Assembly: GCF_030013205.1 (NCBI RefSeq) | Contig: NZ_CP122648.1 | DNA: 64,000 bases | DNA from: Escherichia coli | GTDB taxonomy: Bacteria; Pseudomonadota; Gammaproteobacteria; Enterobacterales; Enterobacteriaceae | Strand: one strand, 5' to 3' | In this document: piece by piece, positions 6,268 through 45,374 of the stretch | Position numbering within the stretch: position 1 is the stretch's first letter | Layout of the letters: every line of letters begins with the position of its first letter | The notes under the pieces: generated by a model | The model's database searches: none | Seen by the model: the letters and a program-made list of their open reading frames with translations, nothing else | Told to the model about the DNA's origin: nothing | Program-made: the position numbers and the translations under genes

Positions 6268-6359
6268 TTTATTAACGCGATTGTAAAACTGCGGTTTTTA
6301 CTCGTTTACAACGCGTGCGCTGGACATTACCATCCTCCTCTGCGATTTATCATCGCAAT

Positions 6360-6437
6360 CAAACGACTCGGGGTGCCCTTCTGCGTGAAGGCTGAGAAAT
6401 ACCCGTATCACCTGATCTGGATAATGCCAGCGTAGGG
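6360..6437 (+). repeat. Left copy of 78-bp direct repeat: TPP-riboswitch aptamer segment without downstream expression platform (att-like)
   Basis: Identical base-for-base to 15250-15327; sequence diverges immediately on both sides. Confidence 0.85.
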
Positions 6438-6520
6438 GGCCAAAATAGTCTTGAAAATTATGTGGTTGTATCTCTTTTTGACCATAAATCATGCTGTTAA
6501 GGTACAAAAAGGGGTCGTTT

Positions 6521-7828
6521 ATGAGGTCAAGAACTCTCCCATACACATTTCAGCGAAACGGTAATTACTATCTACAAATCCGGCTTTCGGATGGTCGGAT
6601 ATACAAAAAATCACTTTTTACTGACAGTTATCGCGAAGCATCGGCGTTGATGATTGGCCTTACTCCGCACATTCCTTTCGTTAAATCACTCGCTACTCCG
6701 TTGCCGCAATTTAATAAGTTTGTTTCAAACTTGATCGCTTCGTCACGTAACGTAATGATTCCGTTGCCACTCCCTCAGCAATTGAACAATATTTCTAAAG
6801 AAGTTTTGCAGCTTCAACCACCAGCCAAACCGGAAAAGGTGCTAACACTTGCTGATGCGTGGGCTATGTACAAGGAGGAAAGAGGTCGAAATTGGACAAA
6901 ATCGATCTCAATGGCAAATGAGCGTTATATGGAGGTATTGCTTGTTGTCTTGGGAAAAGAAACAGACGTAACGGCAATCACCAAACAAGATATTAAGCGA
7001 GTAATGGAAACTGTCGAAAACTTACCAAAGCGTGTAGTGCAACCGTATAGGTCAATGACTATTCAGCAACTAATCGAATGTGATGATGTGCTGCCAGAGG
7101 ATTTAGTTGGTGCTGAGGCTGTACATAAGCACCTTAAAATCTACAAATCGTTATTCAAAACATTTCTGACTGAAAACAAAGATATTCTATCTAAGTCTCC
7201 GACTGATGGAATAGTAGCGGCACCATCCAAAGCTAGGTTTGGTGCATACAGTGCAGCAGAAATGAAAAAATTTGTAGGATGGGCACTAAAGCAGCCTGAT
7301 GGATGGCAGAAGTGGATCACTTTGTTGTTGGCGTACACAGGAGCCAGAAGAGGTGAGATTGCTAAACTGGAGAAGTCGCAGATCAAATTTGATGAAGATA
7401 GCCAGCGGCACTATCTTCTGATCGCGGAAAGAAGGCTGGGTAAAACTGAGAATGCTACAAGACAGGTAGTGATTCATCCCAAACTGATTGAGTGGGGGTT
7501 TCTGGATTTTGTTAACCGCCAATGGAAAGAGAAAATCTTTTCGGAAGTCTCAGGTCGAAATATGTCAAAGATAGGTAAAGTTCTTTCAGATGTTCGTGAT
7601 CAGCTTGATATTCCTTATCTTGATGATTATGGGCAGCGGCGCTTGGTGCATAGTTTCCGGCATACTATGATTTCTACTTGTTTAGCTGGTTGGGTGAGTA
7701 ATTTGGCGCATCTGCAACAGGTGGTAGGTCATGAGAAAAGCGGTTTAGGGATTACCAGACGCTATTTGCACTCTTTTCCTTTACGTTCAATTTGTTACGT
7801 GATTGATGGTTTGGACTGGTTAAATTGA
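6521..7828 (+). CDS. Tyrosine site-specific integrase (phage/P4-like integrase family)
   Basis: C-terminal catalytic motifs TGARRGE, HSFRHT (HxxR) and RRYLH (Tyr nucleophile); ATG 6521 with AGGGG RBS preferred over 6491. Confidence 0.85.
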   Translation: MRSRTLPYTFQRNGNYYLQIRLSDGRIYKKSLFTDSYREASALMIGLTPHIPFVKSLATPLPQFNKFVSNLIASSRNVMIPLPLPQQLNNISKEVLQLQPPAKPEKVLTLADAWAMYKEERGRNWTKSISMANERYMEVLLVVLGKETDVTAITKQDIKRVMETVENLPKRVVQPYRSMTIQQLIECDDVLPEDLVGAEAVHKHLKIYKSLFKTFLTENKDILSKSPTDGIVAAPSKARFGAYSAAEMKKFVGWALKQPDGWQKWITLLLAYTGARRGEIAKLEKSQIKFDEDSQRHYLLIAERRLGKTENATRQVVIHPKLIEWGFLDFVNRQWKEKIFSEVSGRNMSKIGKVLSDVRDQLDIPYLDDYGQRRLVHSFRHTMISTCLAGWVSNLAHLQQVVGHEKSGLGITRRYLHSFPLRSICYVIDGLDWLN

Positions 7829-7869
7829 TGTGAGCCTCGTGAGAAAGGGAATAAATAGAGAAAATCAAG

Positions 7870-7897
7870 TTGTTACCTCATTGGCAGGGGATATAAT
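7870..7897 (+). promoter_or_regulatory. Candidate sigma70 promoter for nuclease gene
   Basis: TTGTTA-16 bp-TATAAT, ~30 bp upstream of ATG 7928; followed by near-palindrome TGACCATATTGTCA (possible operator). Confidence 0.45.
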
Positions 7898-7927
7898 GAC
7901 CATATTGTCATCTTGAGGAACAAAAGT

Positions 7928-9499
7928 ATGGTTGCTCGTTCTAACCTTGTAAATTTAGATGCACTGATTAAGCGTGCTGATTTAGGTTTAAAGATCCAAG
8001 ATAACTCTTCATTTGAAACGCTAAACAGTATTCCTGCAAGAGAATTGAAATCAGGAAGTGGAATTGCTGCGCTTCTGAGAAAACCAGATTTCCAGCGTGA
8101 AACAAATCATTGGGGGCCTGAGCAGGTTGTATCGCTTCTCGAATGCTACATCAATGGTGATTTGATACCTTCCGTTATTCTTTGGCGGTCTTCAACCCAT
8201 CTTTTTGTGATCGATGGTGGTCATCGTTTAAGTGCGTTACGTGCTTGGGTTGAAGATGATTATGGCGACGGTCATATATCCCATCAACTTTTTGGGCATG
8301 ATATTCCTCGTGAACAACGCCGCGCTGCAGATAGAACGAGAAAGCTTGTGAAGGAGAGGGTCGGTAGCTGGGAATATTATCAGAAGTTGCTTGCCGATGA
8401 TGCTTCATTGACCGAGGAACAGCAGAGAAGAATCAGCGTATTAACATCTCGTGGAATCTCAGTCCAATGGGTAGTGGGTGATGTAGATAAGGCAGAAACT
8501 TCATTTTTTAACATCAATATGAAGGGAACTCCTCTTGATGCTATCGAAGAGATGCTTCTAAAAAATCGCAAGAAAAGTATTCCGATAGCAACCCGAGCAA
8601 TTATTCGTGCCGGTAGAGGTCATCGCTATTGGTCGGGGTTTGATCAGAGCATTGCCCAGCAACTTGAAGATAAATCTGCAAAGCTGCATCGTTTGCTGTT
8701 CGAACCTGAAGTTGATCGCCCTATTAAAACTCTTGATCTTCCATTAGGCGGTTCTAGGGGGGTCAGGACAGCGATCCAAGTTTTGAAAGATTTCTTACTG
8801 ATCACTGATTGCAACCAGAATGGTGTTTTGAAAAAAATCGAAGCCTACCCTGATGATGCGTCGGGTGCTGATACGTTAAGAATCCTTTCCAAAGCCACAT
8901 CATTAAGCAATAGAATTACAGGCAATGGCGATGGTAGCTTGGGGCTTCATCCAGCGATTTATTTTTATGGTCCGACTGGAATCCACTCAACGCCAATGTT
9001 TCTAGGAACTGTGCTACTGGTGGCAAAACAACTCTCTAACAATAATGGTCAATTCTTTAAAGACTTCACAACAATCAGATCTAGGCTTGAGAGAATAATG
9101 ATCGAATTTAAGGACTTGATCGCAATGATAGTACAAAAACCAGGTAGTAATGTCCGAGTGGCTCGCTACTGTGATTTTTTAAATGCGGTGATCAAATCAC
9201 TCAAGCAGGGAGAGAATATTGATGAGAGTAAGCTTATCGAGCTGGCCGAATTGGAGGGGAGAATACTCTCTGGAGATTTTAAGAGAACATCAGCAAAAAT
9301 CAGCGATGAACAAAAAAGTAAGGTGTTCATTGACGTGGCTCTGCGCAACGCTTTGAAATGTCCGATTTGCCAAGGTTACCTTGATACTGAAAAGTCAGTT
9401 TCTTATGATCATATCGTACGTGTCCGTGAGGGAGGAGATGGTAATTCTGACAATGTACAGTTGACACACCCTTACTGTAACCAGTCAGTGAAGTGTTAA
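7928..9499 (+). CDS. ParB-like (DUF262/DGQHR-type) N-terminal domain fused to C-terminal HNH endonuclease; candidate defence/type IV restriction-like nuclease
   Basis: N-terminal motifs PDFQRETNHW and VIDGGHRLSAL; C-terminal CPICQ…YDHIVRV…NSDNVQLTHPYCN (HNH with Cys ligands); GAGGAA RBS before ATG 7928. Confidence 0.6.
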   Translation: MVARSNLVNLDALIKRADLGLKIQDNSSFETLNSIPARELKSGSGIAALLRKPDFQRETNHWGPEQVVSLLECYINGDLIPSVILWRSSTHLFVIDGGHRLSALRAWVEDDYGDGHISHQLFGHDIPREQRRAADRTRKLVKERVGSWEYYQKLLADDASLTEEQQRRISVLTSRGISVQWVVGDVDKAETSFFNINMKGTPLDAIEEMLLKNRKKSIPIATRAIIRAGRGHRYWSGFDQSIAQQLEDKSAKLHRLLFEPEVDRPIKTLDLPLGGSRGVRTAIQVLKDFLLITDCNQNGVLKKIEAYPDDASGADTLRILSKATSLSNRITGNGDGSLGLHPAIYFYGPTGIHSTPMFLGTVLLVAKQLSNNNGQFFKDFTTIRSRLERIMIEFKDLIAMIVQKPGSNVRVARYCDFLNAVIKSLKQGENIDESKLIELAELEGRILSGDFKRTSAKISDEQKSKVFIDVALRNALKCPICQGYLDTEKSVSYDHIVRVREGGDGNSDNVQLTHPYCNQSVKC

Positions 9500-9887
9500 A
9501 ATCACGTTTCACTTTTCGTTGTCATTTGTATCGAACGTTTTTGAGAAAGGGCAGGATTGCGAGCGAGTTACCAGCGTAAACAGATAAATACTGTTTTCGT
9601 AAGCCCACTGTCGCCGCTTTCCGCTCTGCAATTTTTGCTTGTCGGGGGGCTAATTGTGGCTTTGCTTGCCATAACATTAAAAGTCAGTAATATACTGAAA
9701 ATTAATACAATACTTTTCATATATCCCATTGAATATTCAGTTCATTGCCAAATAGCAAGCGGAGCACTCTCTCTTTAACGTTGTAGTAACTTAGTTGAAC
9801 AATTTTATAATATAATTTGTCTAAGTTGGTTGATGTATCAAAGCCTTTTTCTGAAGAATGAATTGGCGTGATTACTCACGCCAGATT

Positions 9888-10235
9888 TTAAATTTCAGAA
9901 CATAGGCTAAGCGTATAGACAGCAGTTTGCCCATCATTGTTAGTCGGTCTCATAACGAAAACAGGCTGACTCCCATTATCAATGTATGTGACTGCAACCC
10001 CTCCATCAGGTGTGGCATACATTTTTGCGATGCTTTTTTGACCTATAAAATCAAGTCTCCAAGTCTTACCACCAAGATGTATTGTCATTTTTTTATCTTG
10101 TATATCAAAAGTTGAATCTACAGAAACTTTCTGACTTCCCGAGTCAATATGACCTTCCTGTATTGCTTTACAGGAAAAGGTTGTGGCGTGGCCCATCACT
10201 GGAATTAACAAAGCGGCAAATACTAGTTTTTTCAT
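9888..10235 (-). CDS. Small secreted/periplasmic hypothetical protein (115 aa)
   Basis: Internal ATG with GGGAG RBS; signal peptide MKKLVFAALLIPVMGHA; no family recognised. Confidence 0.5.
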   Translation of the reverse strand: MKKLVFAALLIPVMGHATTFSCKAIQEGHIDSGSQKVSVDSTFDIQDKKMTIHLGGKTWRLDFIGQKSIAKMYATPDGGVAVTYIDNGSQPVFVMRPTNNDGQTAVYTLSLCSEI

Positions 10236-10345
10236 TTGTCTCCCTTGATGTGTCAAATGGATGGTGATGCTAATAATACATGATTGATTCAAAATGTCAC
10301 GATTAGTGCGTGGTTAATTGGTGCGTCAAATTGCATCTTTGTGCC

Positions 10346-10810
10346 ATGCGAAAGAATCTGAGATACCTTTTTGGACAACGAGTAAAAGAGTTCCGTATAG
10401 CTATTGGCTTAAGCCAAGAGGCCTTTGCAGATCGGTGTGGTTTTGCTCGTAGTTATATGAGTCGAATTGAGCGTGGTTGCTCTAATGCATCTCTTGATGC
10501 AATTGAGGTTCTGGCTGACGCTTTGCGTATTGAGCCTTGGCAGTTACTAGCTTCTGATTCAAGGAAAACTGATGATCAGGAGGTACTTGTTCCTTATGCT
10601 GCAGATGGGTCGTGTTTTCATCCAGGATTGGCAAGTACTCGCGATGGTTCGTTTAGAGTAGGGGAAAAATCAGCCCAGAAACGTTTCAGTTCGTTCAATG
10701 ACGCTCTCGAATACCTTCGTGGAATGGAAACCGCGAAGTGGCGTAGGCCTAATGCTAGTGGTAATTGGGGAATTGTATCTGCGGTTAAATGGGATCGACT
10801 GAATCAATAA
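10346..10810 (+). CDS. XRE-family (Cro/CI-type) HTH transcriptional regulator with uncharacterised C-terminal domain
   Basis: HTH segment LSQEAFADRCGFARSYMSRIERG; start codon uncertain (GTG 10310 or ATG 10346). Confidence 0.55.
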   Translation: MRKNLRYLFGQRVKEFRIAIGLSQEAFADRCGFARSYMSRIERGCSNASLDAIEVLADALRIEPWQLLASDSRKTDDQEVLVPYAADGSCFHPGLASTRDGSFRVGEKSAQKRFSSFNDALEYLRGMETAKWRRPNASGNWGIVSAVKWDRLNQ

Positions 10811-10976
10811 GATATCAGTAATTTTCGGGCCACTCCACAAGGCAATAAGTGGCTTAGTGGTGATTATCGAAGGGGAATACAAGCGAGCACCTAGGCACCA
10901 TTGCAAGAACCGCTCAACGCTGAGATCAGCAAGCCCCGATTTCTGCCGACCGTCCCTGTCAAATATCAAGGAGGCA

Positions 10977-11516
10977 TTACGCCTCCTCTTCTTCCTTCTT
11001 AATTCGCTGTACCGTCGAAGGAGCAACATTAAAGATCTCGGCGGTTTTACGCACTGACACGCCATCAGAAAGGGCTTTCTTTATACCTTCTCGATCCACT
11101 GCCTTACCTTTACCACGCTTTCTAGGATTGACGGCTTGCGCTTCTCGTTTACGTTCTAACATCAGTTCACGTTCACACGTTGCCACTGCCGACAACATAG
11201 TAAGCATCATTTTTCCCATCGCGCTTGTAATGTCTGCAATGATCCCTTCTTTGTGAAAGCGAACAATTACACCACGATTATTAAGTTGTTCCACTAAGGC
11301 AAGAATGTCTAAGGTGTTACGCCCTAAACGATCAAGAGAGTGGACGTGTAAGGTGTCGCCTTCTCTCAGATAGGCTAAACACGCTTGTAAGCCTGGGCGG
11401 TTAGTGTCTTTACCAGACAGCTTATCTTCAAAGACTTTGTCGAGAGTTAGTCCTGCAAGCTGGCGATCAGTATTTTGATCTACAGTGCTCACACGCTTAT
11501 AGCCGATATTGCTCAT
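10977..11516 (-). CDS. Serine recombinase (resolvase/DNA invertase family)
   Basis: N-terminus MSNIGYKRVSTVDQNTDRQ (catalytic Ser motif), C-terminal HTH; ATG 11516 with AAGGGGA RBS. Confidence 0.8.
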   Translation of the reverse strand: MSNIGYKRVSTVDQNTDRQLAGLTLDKVFEDKLSGKDTNRPGLQACLAYLREGDTLHVHSLDRLGRNTLDILALVEQLNNRGVIVRFHKEGIIADITSAMGKMMLTMLSAVATCERELMLERKREAQAVNPRKRGKGKAVDREGIKKALSDGVSVRKTAEIFNVAPSTVQRIKKEEEEA

Positions 11517-11564
11517 AAAATCCCCTTGATGTATCGATTTGGCACCACTCCAATGCAAATGAGT

Positions 11565-11660
11565 GTGTTGTATTCATTTGGTCTGTTTCAAGCCTTATGG
11601 ATACGGAATATTACACGATTTAGCTGTATTCATTTGGTATGCCTAATGGATACGCAGGGG
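11565..11660. promoter_or_regulatory. res-like recombinase binding sites upstream of the serine recombinase gene
   Basis: Two similar subsites TGTATTCATTTGGT…ATGGATACG with internal imperfect dyad symmetry, directly upstream of recombinase start. Confidence 0.4.
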
Positions 11661-11769
11661 GATAGATTAAATGGTGTTCTGTTTATACAGGTTTATTTGT
11701 TAGATCAACAAGTTGGCATTTCTAAACAGATGTTTGAACGTTGCCAAATGCCTTGACAACACAAGAAAA

Positions 11770-12720
11770 TGGCTTGCTATGAACGCATTACACGAAATAA
11801 GGCTATAAAAACAAAATAAATTTTAAAATTTGCACAAAAACGAGAAAACTCGTTCGACAAATAATAGATTGGTTTTTAATCGACAATTTCTGACAATTTC
11901 TGATGGTGCTCTGTAAACCGCATTACACAAGGCTTTGCGAAAGTGATGTAAAAGTGAAGAAAGTTAACATTGCACTTTGAAGCCATTTTTCATTGGATTT
12001 TTTAGTAGGGAATTACACAGGGAATAGAGAGCATTATTCTATGATTTACACAGGGAATATAGGGGATTATGGCACACACATAGAAAGGCATTACACAGAG
12101 TGAGTGCTATGTGATGATTGGTAGTAACGGTAGGTCACTGTGAGCTACCCCCCACAGAATTCTGTTACCCCTATCAAGTCTAACAGGGGTTTATAAAGAA
12201 TAATAAACCGATGATACCCCTATCAATATTGATACCCCTATTAGCTTTGATATGACTACCCCTATCAAAACTGATACCCGATAAGAATAAGTTAATAAGA
12301 ATAATTAAATAATATTCTTTATATCTATATATATGATCTTTTTGCCTTCCGGCGTTAGCTTCACTCTCTGGCAAGCAGCCTTACTCCGCTATCTTTGGGC
12401 TTCGTGGCTGGCCCGTTCCGCTCACACCGAAAGCAAAGCGTTACTCTTCTTCGTGTAACTATCGTTGGCGGTAACGCCACACGAAGAAATACTATTGCGC
12501 TGTGCGCAGTAAGAGTAATCACCTAACCAATCACCTGATTGCTTACGTGTTAACTCTCTCTAACTCTTAATTACCCTCCTACATTTAATAACTCTATTAT
12601 TCTCTGTAGTTGTGTAATTACTCGAAGAGAGAGCGGCTAAAGCTCAATTACACTCTGCTTTCCTCGTGTAATTTCACTAAGCCTCAATACAATTTCACTT
12701 CCTACATTCTGTAGTCGTGT
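11770..12720. repeat. Iteron-like repeat cluster in 1.9 kb ORF-free AT-rich region (putative origin or regulatory hub)
   Basis: Five direct copies of (C)ATTACACAG at ~11777-12100, four copies of TACCCCTATCAA at ~12163-12270, reverse-orientation GTGTAAT copies at ~12451-12715. Confidence 0.5.
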
Positions 12721-13503
12721 AATAGTTTTCGGTGGGGAAAAGCCAGAGGCGACACCGAAAGAAAATTCTGATCTTATTAATCTTATCTATCTTAGTTAAT
12801 CTTCTTACTTACTTTATCTACTTTATTATTAATAATAGCTTTATAAGCTCTCTGTGTAGCTCTCTGACGCAAGAAACAGCATTCAGGAAGGGAATCACCT
12901 TAGAAAAGTGTTCTTTGCGTCATAATGTGTTTTATGAAGGATTCAGAGGTGTTTCATAACACAAGGTATAGAGGATATTTTAGTTAATTAAAAATAAGGG
13001 GGCTAAATGCTTCTCTAACAGCATTAAGCAGGGTAGAGAATGGAAATGCATTGCCTACGTATATATAAACTCACTACAAGGCTTTACAGAGCGTTTTATA
13101 AAGTAACTAATCTAAGAACTCTCTGTTTTATATCTATCATCATCTTTCCATCATCTAACAAATACAAAATAAGCCCCTTAAATAAGCCTCTGGCGAGCTA
13201 AACAGCCATTACATAAGGGAATGTATTTCTTTTATCAAAACTTCGTTAGAACGCGTTTTAGAGCGTTTTATACAATAAGGAAGAATAGGACCGTCCGCAA
13301 GAGCACGAATTGCTAAGAAAGAATGTAAACGCATGAAAAATATCAGATTTTTTATGAAAATATATTGACAAATGTTTCTTTATATGTAATAATAGGTATT
13401 AGAGAGACAGAAAAACATTCTTCTCTAAATAATCAAAATCAATGCACTTTGAAGCCGTCAGGCTTGCAAGGTGTTTTTCTTTTAACTGAATAAGGAGTTT
13501 TTT

Positions 13504-13692
13504 ATGAAATGGTTTACACCGGAACACGTCGTAGAGGCATTTAAAAAAGGTGAGCTAACACGACATCAAGTAGTAATGAATCGTAATATGGCAAGGAGTC
13601 GAGGTTATCCAGAGCGTGAAAAATGTTTCGATGCAGCACTAAAAATTATTGATAAATTAAGAAAAAATGAAAAAGGATCTGAAACAGAGTAA
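13504..13692 (+). CDS. Hypothetical small protein (62 aa)
   Basis: AAGGAG RBS upstream of ATG; no family recognised. Confidence 0.35.
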   Translation: MKWFTPEHVVEAFKKGELTRHQVVMNRNMARSRGYPEREKCFDAALKIIDKLRKNEKGSETE

Positions 13693-13711
13693 AGAAGAGA
13701 AGGAGAAAACT

Positions 13712-13882
13712 ATGAGCGAAACTACAGAAAAGAAAAGACAACCACGCACTTGCTTTCATATTCCTGATGAAGTATTTCAGGTGTTGTTTAAAGAAGCCAG
13801 AAGTAAACGTATCACTGTTACAGATTACATTCTTGATATGTTGAAAAGAGAGGCTGAAACACTCTCAAATAAAAGCAAGTGA
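13712..13882 (+). CDS. Small ribbon-helix-helix (CopG/Arc-like) DNA-binding protein
   Basis: 56 aa; AAGGAGAAAAC RBS; N-terminal RTCFHIPDEVFQVLFKEA…ITVTDYILDML pattern typical of RHH. Confidence 0.45.
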   Translation: MSETTEKKRQPRTCFHIPDEVFQVLFKEARSKRITVTDYILDMLKREAETLSNKSK

Positions 13883-13936
13883 TTTTTATCACCATAGTAG
13901 CGCCGTAGAGCGTGATTACATCAAGGAGCTTTTTTA

Positions 13937-14599
13937 ATGATTAAACATACAAAACCTTTCTTAGGAATAGATTATGACTTACTAGCAATCACTTCCCTAG
14001 TGATTAACGGCAAAACAAAAGAAGTAAAACTACATCATAAGATCATTTATTCTTATTTGTTAAGTTTATCTGGCACATATCAAAAGGTAACACCATCTTT
14101 GAAAGGTATTGGTGAGCGGTTAGGAGTAGGTACAGATCAGACGGTACGCCGTCATATCAAAGATCTTGTTTCTTTTGGATGGTTGAAGATTGAGGAAAGG
14201 GCAGGTAGCACAAATGCTTATATTGTCCTTCCTTATGAACAAGAAGCCCAGACACAACAAGAAGCTACCGTTAAAGCTGTTCAGGAACAGCTTCCCCCTA
14301 CGGAAGATAATAAAGAGTTTTCTTTTGATGTTCTTGATGATTGGGATGCGCCTTTACCTTGGGAAATGGAAGAAACGCCATCTGATGAAAAGGTAGCTAA
14401 TGATAATGAGGAGGATGTGTTAGAGAATTTTGCCTCTCTTATCATCCAGGAGAAACACACAAGAACAGGAGGGGCATCATTTATAGAATTTGCAACATCG
14501 TTAGCCTGTAAGCACAGGATAAAGCTACCAAATGGTATTGAGGCATATTTTGCTAAGAAACATCCCAAAGTATATGAAGACTTTGATATTCCATTTTAA
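13937..14599 (+). CDS. HTH (winged-helix-like) protein with acidic linker; possible iteron-binding replication or regulatory protein
   Basis: 220 aa; AAGGAG RBS; HTH-like segment LKGIGERLGVGTDQTVRRHIKDLVSFGWL; sits beside iteron region. Confidence 0.45.
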   Translation: MIKHTKPFLGIDYDLLAITSLVINGKTKEVKLHHKIIYSYLLSLSGTYQKVTPSLKGIGERLGVGTDQTVRRHIKDLVSFGWLKIEERAGSTNAYIVLPYEQEAQTQQEATVKAVQEQLPPTEDNKEFSFDVLDDWDAPLPWEMEETPSDEKVANDNEEDVLENFASLIIQEKHTRTGGASFIEFATSLACKHRIKLPNGIEAYFAKKHPKVYEDFDIPF

Positions 14600-14794
14600 T
14601 AAGGAGGGTTATGATTCAATATTTAGTAAAAAATAAAGTAGAATTCATCTATTCCACTCTCTAAAAATCTATCTGTGTAATATAAAATGAAAACATTATG
14701 GTATTAGCTATGTATTGGTTATTGTTCTTTCTGGCCTTAGAAACATATGCAAGTAAGTCTGGAAAACGAAAGTAATATATTGATGATTTGTTTG

Positions 14795-15052
14795 TTATAA
14801 CTTCGTGGTGTCAAGTCCAGCAGTTTTGAGTCGCTCGGTAAGATTTCTCATTTTGCTGAACTCTGTACCAAAGCTGGCTTTAAGTCCTACACCTTCGCAA
14901 AACTCTTTTGCCGTGACGTTTTTCAGATGGTCAACATATTTGGTCATCTGGAGGTGCATTTCCATCGTTTGGCTATTTCGTGATGCGCTGCTAATGGCTT
15001 GCTTAATGTTCTCGTAGATCTGGGTTCTGTCATTGTTTATCCCACCTATCAA
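14795..15052 (-). CDS. Hypothetical protein (weak call; no in-frame ATG at ORF start)
   Basis: 85-aa ORF begins at TTG; first in-frame ATG would give 56 aa; no family recognised. Confidence 0.25.
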   Translation of the reverse strand: MIGGINNDRTQIYENIKQAISSASRNSQTMEMHLQMTKYVDHLKNVTAKEFCEGVGLKASFGTEFSKMRNLTERLKTAGLDTTKL

Positions 15053-15249
15053 ATTTAGAAAAATAATATTAATTAGCTAATTAATATAATCAATGGTTTT
15101 CACCATCTGAATGATAGCCGTTAATTGTTTCTTTTTCATTCCTTCTATGGGGTACAAAATGGGGTACACAGAGAAGAAGCAATTAATGGAGGCGAGCTTG
15201 CATCTGCAAGCCACTTCCCCTAAGCTGGCACAAAATATAGAGATTCAAC

Positions 15250-15327
15250 CAAACGACTCGGGGTGCCCTTCTGCGTGAAGGCTGAGAAATACCCGTATCA
15301 CCTGATCTGGATAATGCCAGCGTAGGG
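15250..15327 (+). repeat. Right copy of 78-bp direct repeat (part of intact thiM riboswitch)
   Basis: Identical to 6360-6437. Confidence 0.85.
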
Positions 15328-23282: not shown

Positions 23283-23342
23283 GCCTGTCATTCTGATTAA
23301 TTTTCGAATTGTCGTTTTTGTGATCGTTATCTCGACATTTAA

Positions 23343-25542
<2,200 letters not shown>

Positions 25543-25551
25543 GGACGGTAT

Positions 25552-26004
25552 ATGACTAACCTGTTTGTTCGTAGCGGAATTTCTTTTGTCGATCGTAGCG
25601 AAGTTTTAACCCATATCGGTAATGAGATGCTCGCGAAAGGTGTGGTTCATGATACATGGCCACAGGCATTAATTGCCAGAGAAGCAGAATTCCCTACCGG
25701 GATAATGCTTGAGCAGCACGCCATTGCAATACCGCATTGTGAGGCGATTCATGCTAAGTCGTCAGCCATTTATCTGTTAAGGCCAACAAATAAAGTTCAT
25801 TTTCAGCAAGCGGATGATGATAACGACGTGGCGGTATCGTTGGTTATTGCGTTAATTGTGGAAAATCCGCAGCAGCAATTGAAACTTTTACGCTGTTTAT
25901 TTGGCAAGTTACAACAGCCCGAGATCGTCGAGACACTAATCACTCTTCCTGAAACCCAGTTAAAGGAATACTTCACAAAGTATGTTTTAGATTCAGACGA
26001 ATAA
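25552..26004 (+). CDS. gatA: Galactitol PTS EIIA component
   Basis: 150 aa. Confidence 0.9.
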   Translation: MTNLFVRSGISFVDRSEVLTHIGNEMLAKGVVHDTWPQALIAREAEFPTGIMLEQHAIAIPHCEAIHAKSSAIYLLRPTNKVHFQQADDDNDVAVSLVIALIVENPQQQLKLLRCLFGKLQQPEIVETLITLPETQLKEYFTKYVLDSDE

Positions 26005-26034: not shown

Positions 26035-26319
26035 ATGAAACGCAAGATTATTGTCGCTTGCGGAGGCGCGGTTGCGACCTCTACGATGGCGGCGGAAGAA
26101 ATTAAAGAGTTGTGTCAGAGTCATAATATTCCTGTTGAATTAATCCAGTGTCGGGTTAATGAAATAGAAACCTATATGGATGGCGTGCATTTGATATGCA
26201 CCACTGCCAGGGTGGATCGAAGTTTTGGCGATATTCCGTTAGTTCACGGCATGCCTTTTGTTTCTGGTGTCGGTATCGAAGCATTACAAAATAAAATTCT
26301 GACTATCTTACAGGGGTGA
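26035..26319 (+). CDS. gatB: Galactitol PTS EIIB component
   Basis: 94 aa. Confidence 0.9.
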
Positions 26320-26322
26320 CCT

Positions 26323-27336
26323 ATGTTTTCAGAAGTCATGCGTTATATTCTCGACCTCGGCCCTACGGTGATGCTGCCAATTGTCATCATTATTTTTTCT
26401 AAAATATTAGGCATGAAGGCAGGCGATTGCTTTAAAGCGGGTCTGCATATCGGGATTGGCTTTGTTGGCATTGGCCTTGTGATTGGCTTAATGCTGGATT
26501 CCATTGGCCCGGCGGCGAAAGCGATGGCGGAAAATTTCGACCTGAATCTGCATGTGGTCGATGTCGGTTGGCCGGGCTCTTCACCAATGACCTGGGCGTC
26601 GCAAATTGCGCTGGTGGCGATTCCGATTGCGATTCTGGTTAACGTGGCGATGCTACTGACCCGTATGACGCGGGTGGTAAATGTTGATATCTGGAATATC
26701 TGGCATATGACCTTCACCGGCGCATTGCTGCATCTGGCAACCGGTTCATGGATGATAGGGATGGCGGGTGTGGTAATTCACGCGGCGTTTGTTTATAAGC
26801 TCGGCGACTGGTTTGCCCGCGATACCCGAAATTTCTTTGAGCTGGAAGGCATTGCTATTCCGCACGGTACGTCGGCGTATCTGGGGCATACGGCGGTGGT
26901 ATCGGCAAGCCTGATTTTTATCCCGCTCACCATTTTAATTGCTGTTTGTGTGCCGGGTAATCAGGTGCTGCCGTTTGGCGATCTTGCAACTATCGGCTTC
27001 TTTGTGGCGATGGCAGTTGCCGTGCATCGTGGAAATCTGTTCCGCACCTTAATCTCGGGTGTCATCATTATGAGCATCACCCTGTGGATCGCGACGCAAA
27101 CTATTGGTTTGCACACCCAACTGGCGGCTAATGCTGGGGCGTTAAAAGCCGGGGGTATGGTGGCTTCAATGGATCAGGGCGGTTCTCCCATTACCTGGTT
27201 ACTGATTCAGGTTTTCTCCCCGCAAAATATTCCCGGTTTCATTATTATCGGCGCAATTTATCTGACCGGTATTTTCATGACCTGGCGTAGAGCGCGTGGT
27301 TTTATTAAACAAGAGAAAGCCGTTCTCGCAGAATAA
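26323..27336 (+). CDS. gatC: Galactitol PTS EIIC component (appears shortened, 337 aa)
   Basis: Recognised GatC N- and C-terminal sequence, but ~114 aa shorter than the ~451 aa I recall for K-12; junction near …GTSAY|LGHTAVV…. Confidence 0.75.
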   Translation: MFSEVMRYILDLGPTVMLPIVIIIFSKILGMKAGDCFKAGLHIGIGFVGIGLVIGLMLDSIGPAAKAMAENFDLNLHVVDVGWPGSSPMTWASQIALVAIPIAILVNVAMLLTRMTRVVNVDIWNIWHMTFTGALLHLATGSWMIGMAGVVIHAAFVYKLGDWFARDTRNFFELEGIAIPHGTSAYLGHTAVVSASLIFIPLTILIAVCVPGNQVLPFGDLATIGFFVAMAVAVHRGNLFRTLISGVIIMSITLWIATQTIGLHTQLAANAGALKAGGMVASMDQGGSPITWLLIQVFSPQNIPGFIIIGAIYLTGIFMTWRRARGFIKQEKAVLAE

Positions 27337-27383: not shown

Positions 27384-28424
27384 ATGAAATCAGTGGTGAA
27401 TGATACTGATGGTATCGTGCGCATTGCAGAAAGCGTCATTCCTGAAATTAAACATCAGGATGAGGTACGGGTAAAAATTGCCAGCTCGGGCTTATGTGGT
27501 TCCGATTTACCCAGGATATTTAAAAATGGTGCACATTATTATCCAATAACGTTAGGCCATGAATTTAGCGGCTATATTGATGCGGTGGGATCCGGTGTTG
27601 ATGATTTACACCCTGGCGATGCGGTTGCCTGTGTGCCGTTATTACCCTGTTTTACTTGTCCAGAGTGTTTGAAAGGGTTTTATTCCCAGTGCGCAAAATA
27701 TGATTTTATTGGCTCGCGGCGTGATGGTGGATTTGCTGAATATATTGTCGTTAAGCGAAAAAATGTCTTTGCTCTACCCACGGATATGTCTATTGAGGAT
27801 GGGGCTTTTATTGAGCCGATTACCGTTGGCCTGCATGCTTTTCATTTAGCGCAAGGTTGTGAGAATAAAAACGTTATTATTATTGGTGCCGGAACCATTG
27901 GCCTGCTGGCTATTCAGTGCGCTGTCGCGCTGGGAGCAAAGAGTGTGACGGCTATCGACATTAGCTCAGAAAAACTGGCACTGGCAAAATCTTTCGGTGC
28001 GATGCAAACATTTAACAGCCTTGAAATGAGCGCGCCGCAAATGCAGGGCGTTTTACGCGAGCTGCGCTTTAATCAGCTTATCCTCGAGACGGCTGGCGTC
28101 CCGCAAACCGTCGAACTGGCGGTAGAGATTGCCGGGCCTCATGCCCAGCTGGCGCTGGTGGGCACGTTGCATCAGGATCTGCATTTAACATCGACAACGT
28201 TTGGCAAAATATTACGTAAAGAGCTGACGGTTATCGGCAGCTGGATGAACTACTCCAGCCCTTGGCCGGGGCAGGAGTGGGAAACGGCGAGCCGGTTGCT
28301 GACAGAACGTAAGTTAAGCCTGGAGCCATTAATCGCTCACCGTGGAAGCTTTGAAAGCTTCACCCAGGCGGTGCGTGACATCGCTCGTAATGCTATGCCG
28401 GGCAAAGTGTTGCTCATTCCTTGA
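27384..28424 (+). CDS. gatD: Galactitol-1-phosphate 5-dehydrogenase (zinc-dependent ADH family)
   Basis: 346 aa. Confidence 0.9.
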   Translation: MKSVVNDTDGIVRIAESVIPEIKHQDEVRVKIASSGLCGSDLPRIFKNGAHYYPITLGHEFSGYIDAVGSGVDDLHPGDAVACVPLLPCFTCPECLKGFYSQCAKYDFIGSRRDGGFAEYIVVKRKNVFALPTDMSIEDGAFIEPITVGLHAFHLAQGCENKNVIIIGAGTIGLLAIQCAVALGAKSVTAIDISSEKLALAKSFGAMQTFNSLEMSAPQMQGVLRELRFNQLILETAGVPQTVELAVEIAGPHAQLALVGTLHQDLHLTSTTFGKILRKELTVIGSWMNYSSPWPGQEWETASRLLTERKLSLEPLIAHRGSFESFTQAVRDIARNAMPGKVLLIP

Positions 28425-28523: not shown

Positions 28524-29303
28524 ATGACGATGAATTCATTCGAGCGAAGGAATAAGATCATCCAATTAGTGAATGAACAGGGAACCGTGCTTGTTCAGGA
28601 TCTGGCGGGAGTATTTGCTGCATCGGAAGCGACAATCCGTGCCGATTTGCGCTTTCTCGAACAAAAAGGCGTGGTTACGCGCTTTCATGGCGGTGCGGCG
28701 AAAATAATGTCCGGTAATAGTGAAACCGAGACCCAGGAAGTCGGGTTTAAAGCGCGATTTCAGCTCGCCAGCGCGCCAAAAAACAGAATAGCGCAGGCGG
28801 CAGTCAAAATGATCCACGAAGGGATGACCGTTATTCTCGACAGCGGAAGTACGACAATGCTTATCGCCGAAGGATTAATGACCGCCAAAAATATCACGGT
28901 GATTACCAACAGTCTCCCGGCAGCGTTTGCCCTTTCCGAAAATAAAGACATTACTCTGGTTGTCTGTGGTGGCACGGTCCGCCATAAAACGCGCTCGATG
29001 CATGGTTCCATTGCCGAGCGTTCATTACAGGATATTAATGCCGATTTAATGTTTGTCGGTGCTGATGGTATTGATGCGGTTAATGGTATTACGACCTTTA
29101 ATGAAGGTTATTCGATTAGCGGGGCGATGGTCACAGCCGCAAATAAAGTGATTGCCGTTCTCGATTCATCGAAATTTAATCGTCGCGGTTTTAATCAGGT
29201 ACTGCCAATCGAAAAAATTGACATTATTATTACCGACGATGCCGTGTCAGAGGTGGATAAACTGGCATTGCAGAAGACACGGGTAAAATTAATTACGGTG
29301 TAG
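28524..29303 (+). CDS. gatR: DeoR-family repressor of the gat operon (uninterrupted)
   Basis: 259 aa continuous ORF with N-terminal DeoR-type HTH and sugar-binding C-domain. Confidence 0.85.
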   Translation: MTMNSFERRNKIIQLVNEQGTVLVQDLAGVFAASEATIRADLRFLEQKGVVTRFHGGAAKIMSGNSETETQEVGFKARFQLASAPKNRIAQAAVKMIHEGMTVILDSGSTTMLIAEGLMTAKNITVITNSLPAAFALSENKDITLVVCGGTVRHKTRSMHGSIAERSLQDINADLMFVGADGIDAVNGITTFNEGYSISGAMVTAANKVIAVLDSSKFNRRGFNQVLPIEKIDIIITDDAVSEVDKLALQKTRVKLITV

Positions 29304-32707: not shown

Positions 32708-32853
32708 AATTCTCTCGTTCTGATGACAGGTCAGATCCGCTTCACCTGATGAAGCGGCCAGGGGAGTGCCCCCACTTTAAGGGCGGGCATTGTAGCGCTG
32801 TAGGGGGGGCTGGTAAAGCGCCAGACGCCAACAACACGCGCCCGGCATCGTAA

Positions 32854-44577: not shown

Positions 44578-44717
44578 AAACGGGAAAGCCCCTCCCGAGG
44601 AAGGGGCCATAAATAAGGAAAGGGTCATGATGAAGCTACTCATCATCGTGGTGCTCTTAGTCATTAGCTGGCCAGCTTACTAAGACTACCAGGGCGGGGG
44701 AAACCCCGCTCTACCCT
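44578..44717 (-). ncRNA. sibB: Sib antisense sRNA (antitoxin) over ibs unit 1; boundaries approximate
   Basis: Minus-strand TTGACA-17-TACTTT promoter downstream of ibs stop; hairpin plus U-rich tract upstream of ibs start. Confidence 0.5.
44627..44683 (+). CDS. ibsB: Type I toxin Ibs (18 aa, MMKLLIIVVLLVISWPAY)
   Basis: Exact small hydrophobic ORF with tandem ATG. Confidence 0.8.
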   Translation: MMKLLIIVVLLVISWPAY

Positions 44718-44905
44718 CACTCCTGAAAGTATGCCTTCACGATAAGATTGTCAATCTGCAGGCTTTGCAGTCTGCGATCCTGCCAGCAAATATTCTTTGC
44801 GAGACGTTACGCAATAATCACACTGGAAACTATTTTATCCGCAAGTCAGCGATAGACTGCATTCAGGGCGAAAGGAGGTAAGCCGACGATTTCAGCGGGA
44901 CGCTG

Positions 44906-45045
44906 AAACGGGAAAGCCCCTCCCGAGGAAGGGGCCTTAAATAAGGAAAGGGTCATGATGAAGATACTCATCATCGTGGTGCTCTTAGTGATTAGCTACC
45001 CAGCATACTAAGACTACCAGGGCGGGGGAAACCCCGCTCTACCCT
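44906..45045 (-). ncRNA. Sib antisense sRNA over ibs unit 2; boundaries approximate
   Basis: Minus-strand TTGACA-17-TAATTT promoter; same architecture as unit 1. Confidence 0.5.
44955..45011 (+). CDS. Type I toxin Ibs variant (18 aa, MMKILIIVVLLVISYPAY)
   Basis: Middle repeat unit; differs from flanking Ibs peptides at L4I and W15Y. Confidence 0.75.
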   Translation: MMKILIIVVLLVISYPAY

Positions 45046-45234
45046 CACTCCTGAAATTATGCCTTCACGATAAGATTGTCAATCTGCAGGCTTTGCAGTC
45101 TGCGATCCCGCCAGCAAATATTCTTTGCGAGTCGTTACGCAATAATCACAGAGGAAACTATTTTGTTCACGCGTTAGCGATAGACTGCATTCAGGGCGAA
45201 AGGAGGTAAGCCGACGATTTCAGCGGGACGCTGA

Positions 45235-45374
45235 AACGGGAAACCCTCTCCCGGAGAAGAGGGCTTTTAATAAGGAAAGGGTTATGATGAAGCACGTCAT
45301 CATACTGGTGATACTCTTAGTGATTAGCTTCCAGGCTTACTAAGAACACCAGGGGGAGGGGGAAACCTCTCCCT
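45235..45374 (-). ncRNA. sibA: Sib antisense sRNA over ibs unit 3; boundaries approximate
   Basis: Minus-strand TTGACA-17-TAATTT promoter downstream of ibs stop. Confidence 0.5.
45284..45343 (+). CDS. ibsA: Type I toxin Ibs (19 aa, MMKHVIILVILLVISFQAY)
   Basis: Exact small hydrophobic ORF. Confidence 0.8.
   Translation: MMKHVIILVILLVISFQAY

Follow-up and report, generated by a model that had tools for sequence, protein, structure and literature searches.

The DNA analysed here, hereafter the window, is a 64-kb stretch of an Escherichia coli genome that carries the galactitol (gat) operon in the order gatYZABCDR, with gatC following gatA and gatB and preceding gatD. As the initial annotation had described, gatC is an uninterrupted open reading frame of 337 amino acids with no internal stop codon. 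Its product is held in RefSeq as WP_192297611.1, where it is named only 'PTS transporter subunit IIC', and PGAP annotates the gene without a pseudogene flag. The gene occupies the same operon position as EIIC-Gat of the UniProt P69831 type, between gatB and gatD. Unlike that protein, the product in the window lacks residues 189-302 and its match to the family profile falls into two pieces. The genes of the operon and the parts of the gatC allele are listed in Table 1.

Table 1. Genes of the gat operon and segments of the gatC deletion allele in the 64-kb window. Lg, Leminorella grimontii; HP, re-entrant hairpin; TM, transmembrane helix.
Feature	Position	Strand	Basis
gatY, intact	23397..24251	+	Co-linear ETEC4067 annotation; 0 SNPs vs ETEC4068
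gatZ, intact	24280..25542	+	ORF, ETEC4067 annotation, ETEC4068 comparison
gatA (EIIA-Gat), intact	25552..26004	+	ORF, ETEC4067 annotation
gatB (EIIB-Gat), intact	26035..26319	+	ORF, ETEC4067 annotation
gatC deletion allele, 337 aa	26323..27336	+	ORF, annotation, PF03611 and TIGR00827 matches
GatC N-terminal part, parent residues 1-186: V motif 1, HP1, TM3-TM5, HP2 first arm including G182-T183-S184	26323..26880	+	Identical prefix; LgGatC residue anchors, 81%-identity alignment
Deletion junction: single kept CTGGGGC copy, encoding L-G plus 1 nt	26881..26887	+	Comparison with parent
GatC C-terminal part, parent residues 303-451: distal HP3, TM8-TM10, HP4, TM11, native stop	26888..27336	+	Identical suffix
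gatD (galactitol-1-phosphate 5-dehydrogenase), intact, start and upstream spacer unchanged	27384..28424	+	ORF, ETEC4067 annotation, ETEC4068 comparison
gatR (DeoR-type repressor), intact	28530..29303	+	ORF, ETEC4067 annotation

The other six genes of the operon, gatY, gatZ, gatA, gatB, gatD and gatR, are identical to those of sister strains that carry an intact gatC. The earlier statement that gatD and gatR are left in frame is thus confirmed, both genes being intact. The gatC stop codon and the spacer between gatC and gatD are unchanged, so that no polarity on gatD is expected. Unlike E. coli K-12, in which gatR is interrupted by an IS, the strain in the window has an intact gatR. Upstream of the operon, a run of A residues at 23341-23345 lies 52 bp before the gatY ATG, between a CRP-like site (TGTGATCGTTATCTCGACA) and a probable -10 element. 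The run is A5 in the window and in most strains, among them ETEC4068, CFSAN018748 and an unrelated dog strain, and A6 is private to W13-16 and ETEC6333. We considered this difference as a second gat promoter mutation and rejected it, given that A5 is shared by ETEC4068 and CFSAN018748, sisters with intact gatC, and is unlinked to the gatC deletion. The A6 form in W13-16 and ETEC6333 could reflect a genuine change of spacing in the gat promoter, or else an error in sequencing the homopolymer.

Elsewhere in the window, an island of about 8.8 kb (6356-15327) lies between rcnR and thiM and is flanked by 82-bp direct repeats, 98.8% identical to each other (6356-6437 and 15246-15327), which are copies of the thiM TPP riboswitch. 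The island encodes a tyrosine integrase (6521-7828), a GmrSD-type restriction endonuclease (7928-9499), a recombinase-family gene and HTH proteins. From its content and borders it looks like an integrative defence island, inserted at the thiM leader with regeneration of the riboswitch. Between mdtA and yegL, three tandem genes for Ibs-family type I toxins of 19-20 codons each are present at 44628-45344 (co-linear ETEC4067 annotation), which is the usual ibs/sib repeat region.

In the near-identical strains W13-16 and ETEC4068, full-length gatC is annotated as 1356 bp encoding 451 amino acids. The cluster of 451-aa GatC proteins has 4875 members, and orthologs in other Enterobacteriaceae are 451-457 aa long, so the length of about 451 aa given in the initial annotation was correct. 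A base-by-base comparison of the window gatC with that of E. coli O139:H1 W13-16 gave an identical prefix of 565 bases and an identical suffix of 456 bases, overlapping by 7, and showed that exactly 342 bp, or 114 codons, are missing in frame. The earlier proposal, an in-frame loss of about 114 codons from inside the gene, is borne out, and the deletion is now placed at residues 189-302 (equivalently 187-300). The N- and C-terminal portions, which had been called normal, are the identical prefix and suffix, ending at the same stop codon. Over the remainder of the gene, identity to the 451-aa gatC of the sister strains is 100%, and the 337 kept residues are identical to the product of that allele, WP_000490663.1. 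Aligned with full-length alleles, the short protein is not colinear. No copy of the lost 342 bp is found elsewhere within the window.

In the parent gene, the sequence CTGGGGC occurs at gene nucleotides 559 and 901, a spacing of 342 bp. Both copies encode Leu-Gly (...SAY-LG-PIAV... and ...ALL-LG-HTAV...), which explains the junction ...GTSAYLGHTAVV... that had been read earlier and that the open reading frame indeed contains. The hallmarks of a deletion between short direct repeats are all present: identical repeats at the borders in the parent, a single copy in the product, and microhomology above chance. Among the 752,241 deletions of 50-1000 bp that could be made in the parent gatC, a fraction of only 8e-4 have microhomology of at least 7 bp, and the repeat continues as an imperfect match (14/18). 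The junction holds no extra bases, filler or mobile-element remnant, prefix and suffix together covering every base of the short allele. These borders point to a short-direct-repeat event, by either slippage or microhomology.

Replication slippage is the classical mechanism for deletions between short direct repeats, and work by Farabaugh, Albertini and Miller reportedly described RecA-independent deletions of this kind, by slipped mispairing, in E. coli lacI. As in lacI, perfect short repeats flank the lost gatC segment, one copy is kept and imperfect homology extends beyond it. Unlike the lacI deletions, the gatC event is known from its product alone, in which slippage and microhomology-mediated end joining are indistinguishable. 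We propose that the ancestor belonged to a swine O139:H1/ST1-like lineage of E. coli with a normal 451-aa gatC, and that a single spontaneous deletion would have joined the two repeats, removing one copy and the 335 bp between them. Slipped-strand mispairing during replication would be the most likely route; repair of a break by microhomology-mediated end joining would leave the identical product. Two other sequence features were considered and set aside. The deleted DNA contains a perfect inverted repeat of 9 bp whose arms are separated by 196 nt, too weak to support a role. A Chi site (GCTGGTGG) lies at gene nucleotide 576, 10 nt inside the left border, but gatC has two Chi sites and such proximity has a chance of about 10%.

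Other natural variants of gatC are present in public E. coli data. In-frame deletion forms of 433, 421, 414 and 411 aa (18, 30, 37 and 40 aa lost) were found, the 421-aa form on 9 contigs. There is also a 481-aa form in which 30 aa are duplicated in tandem, and 20 contigs carry a 547-aa fusion of GatB with GatC. Outside these changes, every variant matches the normal gene at 99-100% identity, and the deletions and the duplication, like the allele in the window, are independent in-frame indels in a near-identical gatC. The natural 90-bp (30-aa) deletion also has microhomology at its borders, of 6 bp (TGCTGC). The other deletions differ from that in the window in having other borders and in being smaller (18-40 aa); the window deletion is the largest, and among these variants the sole one that takes out a whole structural subdomain. 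The breakpoint regions of the independent deletions cluster at gene nucleotides 559-583 and 896-907. A 120-bp deletion has its end at nucleotide 570, which is 5 nt away from the left copy of the repeat and 5 nt before the Chi site, and the 90-bp deletion begins at nucleotide 896, adjoining the right repeat copy at nucleotide 901. This post hoc observation suggests that there may be local deletion hotspots in the G-rich, Chi-like sequence of gatC.

To follow the allele through sequenced genomes, we used a 47-mer spanning the junction (CGCACGGTACGTCGGCGTATCTGGGGCATACGGCGGTGGTATCGGCA), whose design leaves the intact allele unable to seed a match. Of 5426 complete E. coli genomes, exactly 7 match the probe, and all of them come from swine: K_EC180 (Korea) and ETEC1748, ETEC4067, ETEC4069, ETEC4070, ETEC4071 and ETEC4079, of which ETEC4067 is recorded as originating in Belgium and the other five are grouped with it by accession series (CP1226xx-CP1227xx). 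Over an independent 25 kb of the window downstream, the same seven genomes score highest, as identical matches. Just below them in the 25-kb score are swine strains with intact gatC, namely ETEC4068, ETEC4075, ETEC6333, ETEC6334, W13-16 and P15-25, the last two being O139:H1 ST1 strains (PMC8798679). By these matches, the carriers are a tight subclade of an O139:H1/ST1-like lineage whose sisters retain an intact gatC, and the deletion allele would have spread clonally (Belgium, Korea).

Apart from the deletion, ETEC4068 shows 0 SNPs relative to the window over 5.9 kb of the gat operon. K_EC180 differs from the window by 1 nt, at 24060 in gatY (C instead of A), and its GatY has a private accession (WP_192297609.1), whereas the window has the common gatY. 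ETEC4067 differs by 2 SNPs and one indel in 50 kb. Judged by this near-identity, the strain in the window is clearly part of the carrier clone despite its small differences from K_EC180 and ETEC4067. The two SNPs relative to ETEC4067 lie at 2244 and 3662, in the yehB/yehA region. At 32803-32810, between yegQ and yegP, the window reads GGGGGGG then C and ETEC4067 reads GGGGGG then AG, which may be either a homopolymer-associated indel or an assembly difference. A literature search found no paper on the present gatC allele or on dulcitol fermentation in the carrier lineage; searches for the ETEC4067 strain series, and for dulcitol with O139 and porcine, returned nothing relevant, and the O139:H1 wild-boar paper makes no mention of gat.

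The consequence for the protein can be read against the solved GatC of Leminorella grimontii (LgGatC; PDB 9u82/9u84/9u8e/9u8h; bioRxiv 10.1101/2025.04.02.646771), to which E. coli GatC is 81% identical and colinear to about residue 390. LgGatC has 11 transmembrane helices, four re-entrant hairpins and two amphipathic helices; its fold is built from two inverted repeats and a terminal helix. Repeat I consists of V motif 1 (AH1-TM1-TM2) and core 1, repeat II of V motif 2 (AH2-TM6-TM7) and core 2, and TM11 is C-terminal (bioRxiv 10.1101/2025.04.02.646771). The residues G182, T183 and S184 are placed in HP2, the conserved pivot G270 in TM7, D296 and P297 in HP3, F340 in TM9 and D399 in HP4; an elevator mechanism is proposed in which the core moves against a static V-motif domain, and D296 is proposed to hydrogen-bond the substrate (bioRxiv 10.1101/2025.04.02.646771). 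Residues 189-302 span the HP2 tip to the HP3 tip. By the LgGatC anchors, with helix limits that are approximate, the deletion therefore takes the second arm of HP2, AH2, TM6 and TM7 (that is, all of V motif 2, including G270) and the tip of HP3 with D296 and P297. The anchors F340 (TM9) and D398 (equivalent to Lg D399, in HP4) are kept in the C-terminal part. Hydropathy and a rough AlphaFold helix map agree with this layout; the AlphaFold2 model of the 451-aa parent, built from a 13-sequence alignment, had a pLDDT of 42 and gives rough helix limits only. The complete EIIC-Gat fold, with two inverted repeats of a V motif and a core each followed by TM11, is not present in the 337-aa form.

Conservation and family profiles are consistent with this picture. 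Among 13 orthologs of 69% to 91% identity, 53 of the 114 lost positions are invariant, and the block 253-302 is nearly all invariant. Against TIGR00827 the parent scores 709.8 bits in one stretch (1-407/407), whereas the 337-aa form scores 480.6 bits in two stretches, below the cut-off of 542.2, which is presumably why PGAP gives it only the general name. The short form passes PF03611 (EIIC-GAT), with a score of 202.1 against a gathering threshold of 24.2, also in two stretches; the first stretch covers residues 8-186 (profile positions 1-185 of 394). By these scores the 337-aa form is gatC by descent and not a complete member of the TIGR00827 family. Taken together, the structure mapping, the conservation and the sub-threshold family score indicate that galactitol transport is very likely lost. 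With half of the scaffold domain and part of the binding cavity gone, neither transport of galactitol nor its presentation for phosphorylation would be expected, and carriers would be galactitol (dulcitol) negative. We consider it highly probable that the allele as a whole is explained by a single repeat-mediated deletion of 342 bp in gatC, loss of galactitol transport and clonal spread.

Why such an allele should persist is a separate matter. [quoted passage not shown] The strain in these experiments was K-12, whose gatR is disrupted and whose gat operon is constitutive (PMC5094792, PMC10878103). The evolved alleles (Barroso-Batista 2014, Lourenco 2016, 2024 mSystems study) affect the same gene as the allele in the window and have the same predicted phenotype, no galactitol uptake. 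They are, however, a 1-bp insertion in gatC and IS insertions rather than a 342-bp in-frame deletion between 7-bp repeats, and they arose in laboratory evolution in the mouse gut with gatR disrupted, whereas the window allele comes from a natural swine isolate with gatR intact. Given the intact gatR, the selective argument from K-12 may not transfer.

There is about an even chance that the same deletion, with the same loss of function, reached fixation in a clonal pathogen lineage through drift or hitch-hiking and not through selection against galactitol uptake. The cost of constitutive expression in K-12 need not apply where gatR is intact, the allele occurs in just 7 of 5426 genomes, all of one tight clone, and the gat operon shows no other decay. 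On the other hand, gat-negative mutants repeatedly sweep in the mouse gut (PMC5094792, PMC10878103), and natural E. coli harbor further gatC alleles of independent origin, several with in-frame deletions and one with a duplication. Drift and selection are equally good explanations for the persistence of the allele, and the choice between them bears on why it persists, not on what it is. That the 114-codon deletion is a positively selected gat-negative allele marking an internationally spread swine O139:H1/ST1-like subclone is, on our reading, unlikely. If true, the gat-loss sweeps seen in mice would have a parallel in nature, in a strain whose gatR is intact.

It is considerably less probable that the 337-aa protein is functional, whether through some remaining or changed transport activity or through a dominant or regulatory role (for example, titrating phospho-GatB), and that its in-frame state has been kept for that reason. 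The reading frame is preserved to the native stop, and, by element order and rough secondary structure, the excised cassette runs from cytoplasm to cytoplasm with two full membrane crossings, so that the remaining helices could keep their orientation. The remnant could insert in the membrane with correct topology in such a model, since the two joined hairpins both enter from the cytoplasmic side. Of the 12 substrate-cavity residues, 10 are kept (W83, S87, N125, W127, H128, G182, T183, S184, F340 and D399 in Lg numbering, the last being D398 in E. coli). The two cavity residues that are deleted are D296, the proposed hydrogen-bonder of the substrate, and P297. The deletion also strikes the static scaffold, the V-motif domain, and removes the conserved pivot G270 of TM7, and the TIGR00827 score falls under the cut-off. 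Preservation of the frame says nothing about function: one in three random deletions is in frame, and 80 of the 125 pairs of 7-mer direct repeats in gatC are spaced in frame, so the in-frame outcome carries no information. Finally, the allele is rare and young and shows no further sequence change since the deletion, and hence no sign of maintenance. We therefore favor loss of function over a retained role for the short protein.

An assembly or sequencing artefact, in which the genome itself has the 342 bp and the assembly collapsed them, is very improbable. Six of the seven complete carrier genomes do come from one project series (CP1226xx-CP1227xx). However, the same junction is found in K_EC180 from Korea, an independent project, and the sisters ETEC4068, ETEC4075 and ETEC6333 of the same series assemble a full gatC. 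A 7-bp repeat is also much too short to cause assembly collapse. The exact 337-aa protein occurs on 41 contigs, and 61 index blocks of the contig collection list it. Several accessions from NCBI drafts, TPA and Logan carry it, and its presence under several independent accessions excludes an assembly artefact. The reverse polarity, in which the short gatC is original and the 451-aa form carries an insertion, is the least credible reading and is already refuted by outgroup comparison: 5083 complete E. coli genomes have the flanking gat DNA, and 5068 of them contain the 342-bp segment, as do all orthologs examined (including those of Salmonella, Cronobacter, Kluyvera, Kosakonia, Klebsiella and Gilliamella, with the 53 invariant positions); the segment is covered by the Pfam and TIGRFAM profiles and belongs to the solved fold, all of which makes the short form the derived one.

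The gatC allele in the window is thus a recent, clone-specific, in-frame short-repeat deletion, a fresh example of a well-known kind of event, and its 337-aa sequence is already in RefSeq (WP_192297611.1). Inactivation of the gat operon in gut E. coli is well studied; the allele contributes a further case from nature and opens no new question. The 47-nt junction provides a specific marker for one porcine E. coli subclone of the edema-disease/ETEC type, and the allele predicts a dulcitol/galactitol-negative biotype. Automatic annotation keeps the deleted gatC as an ordinary CDS, so that metabolic reconstructions would credit carriers with galactitol use in error.
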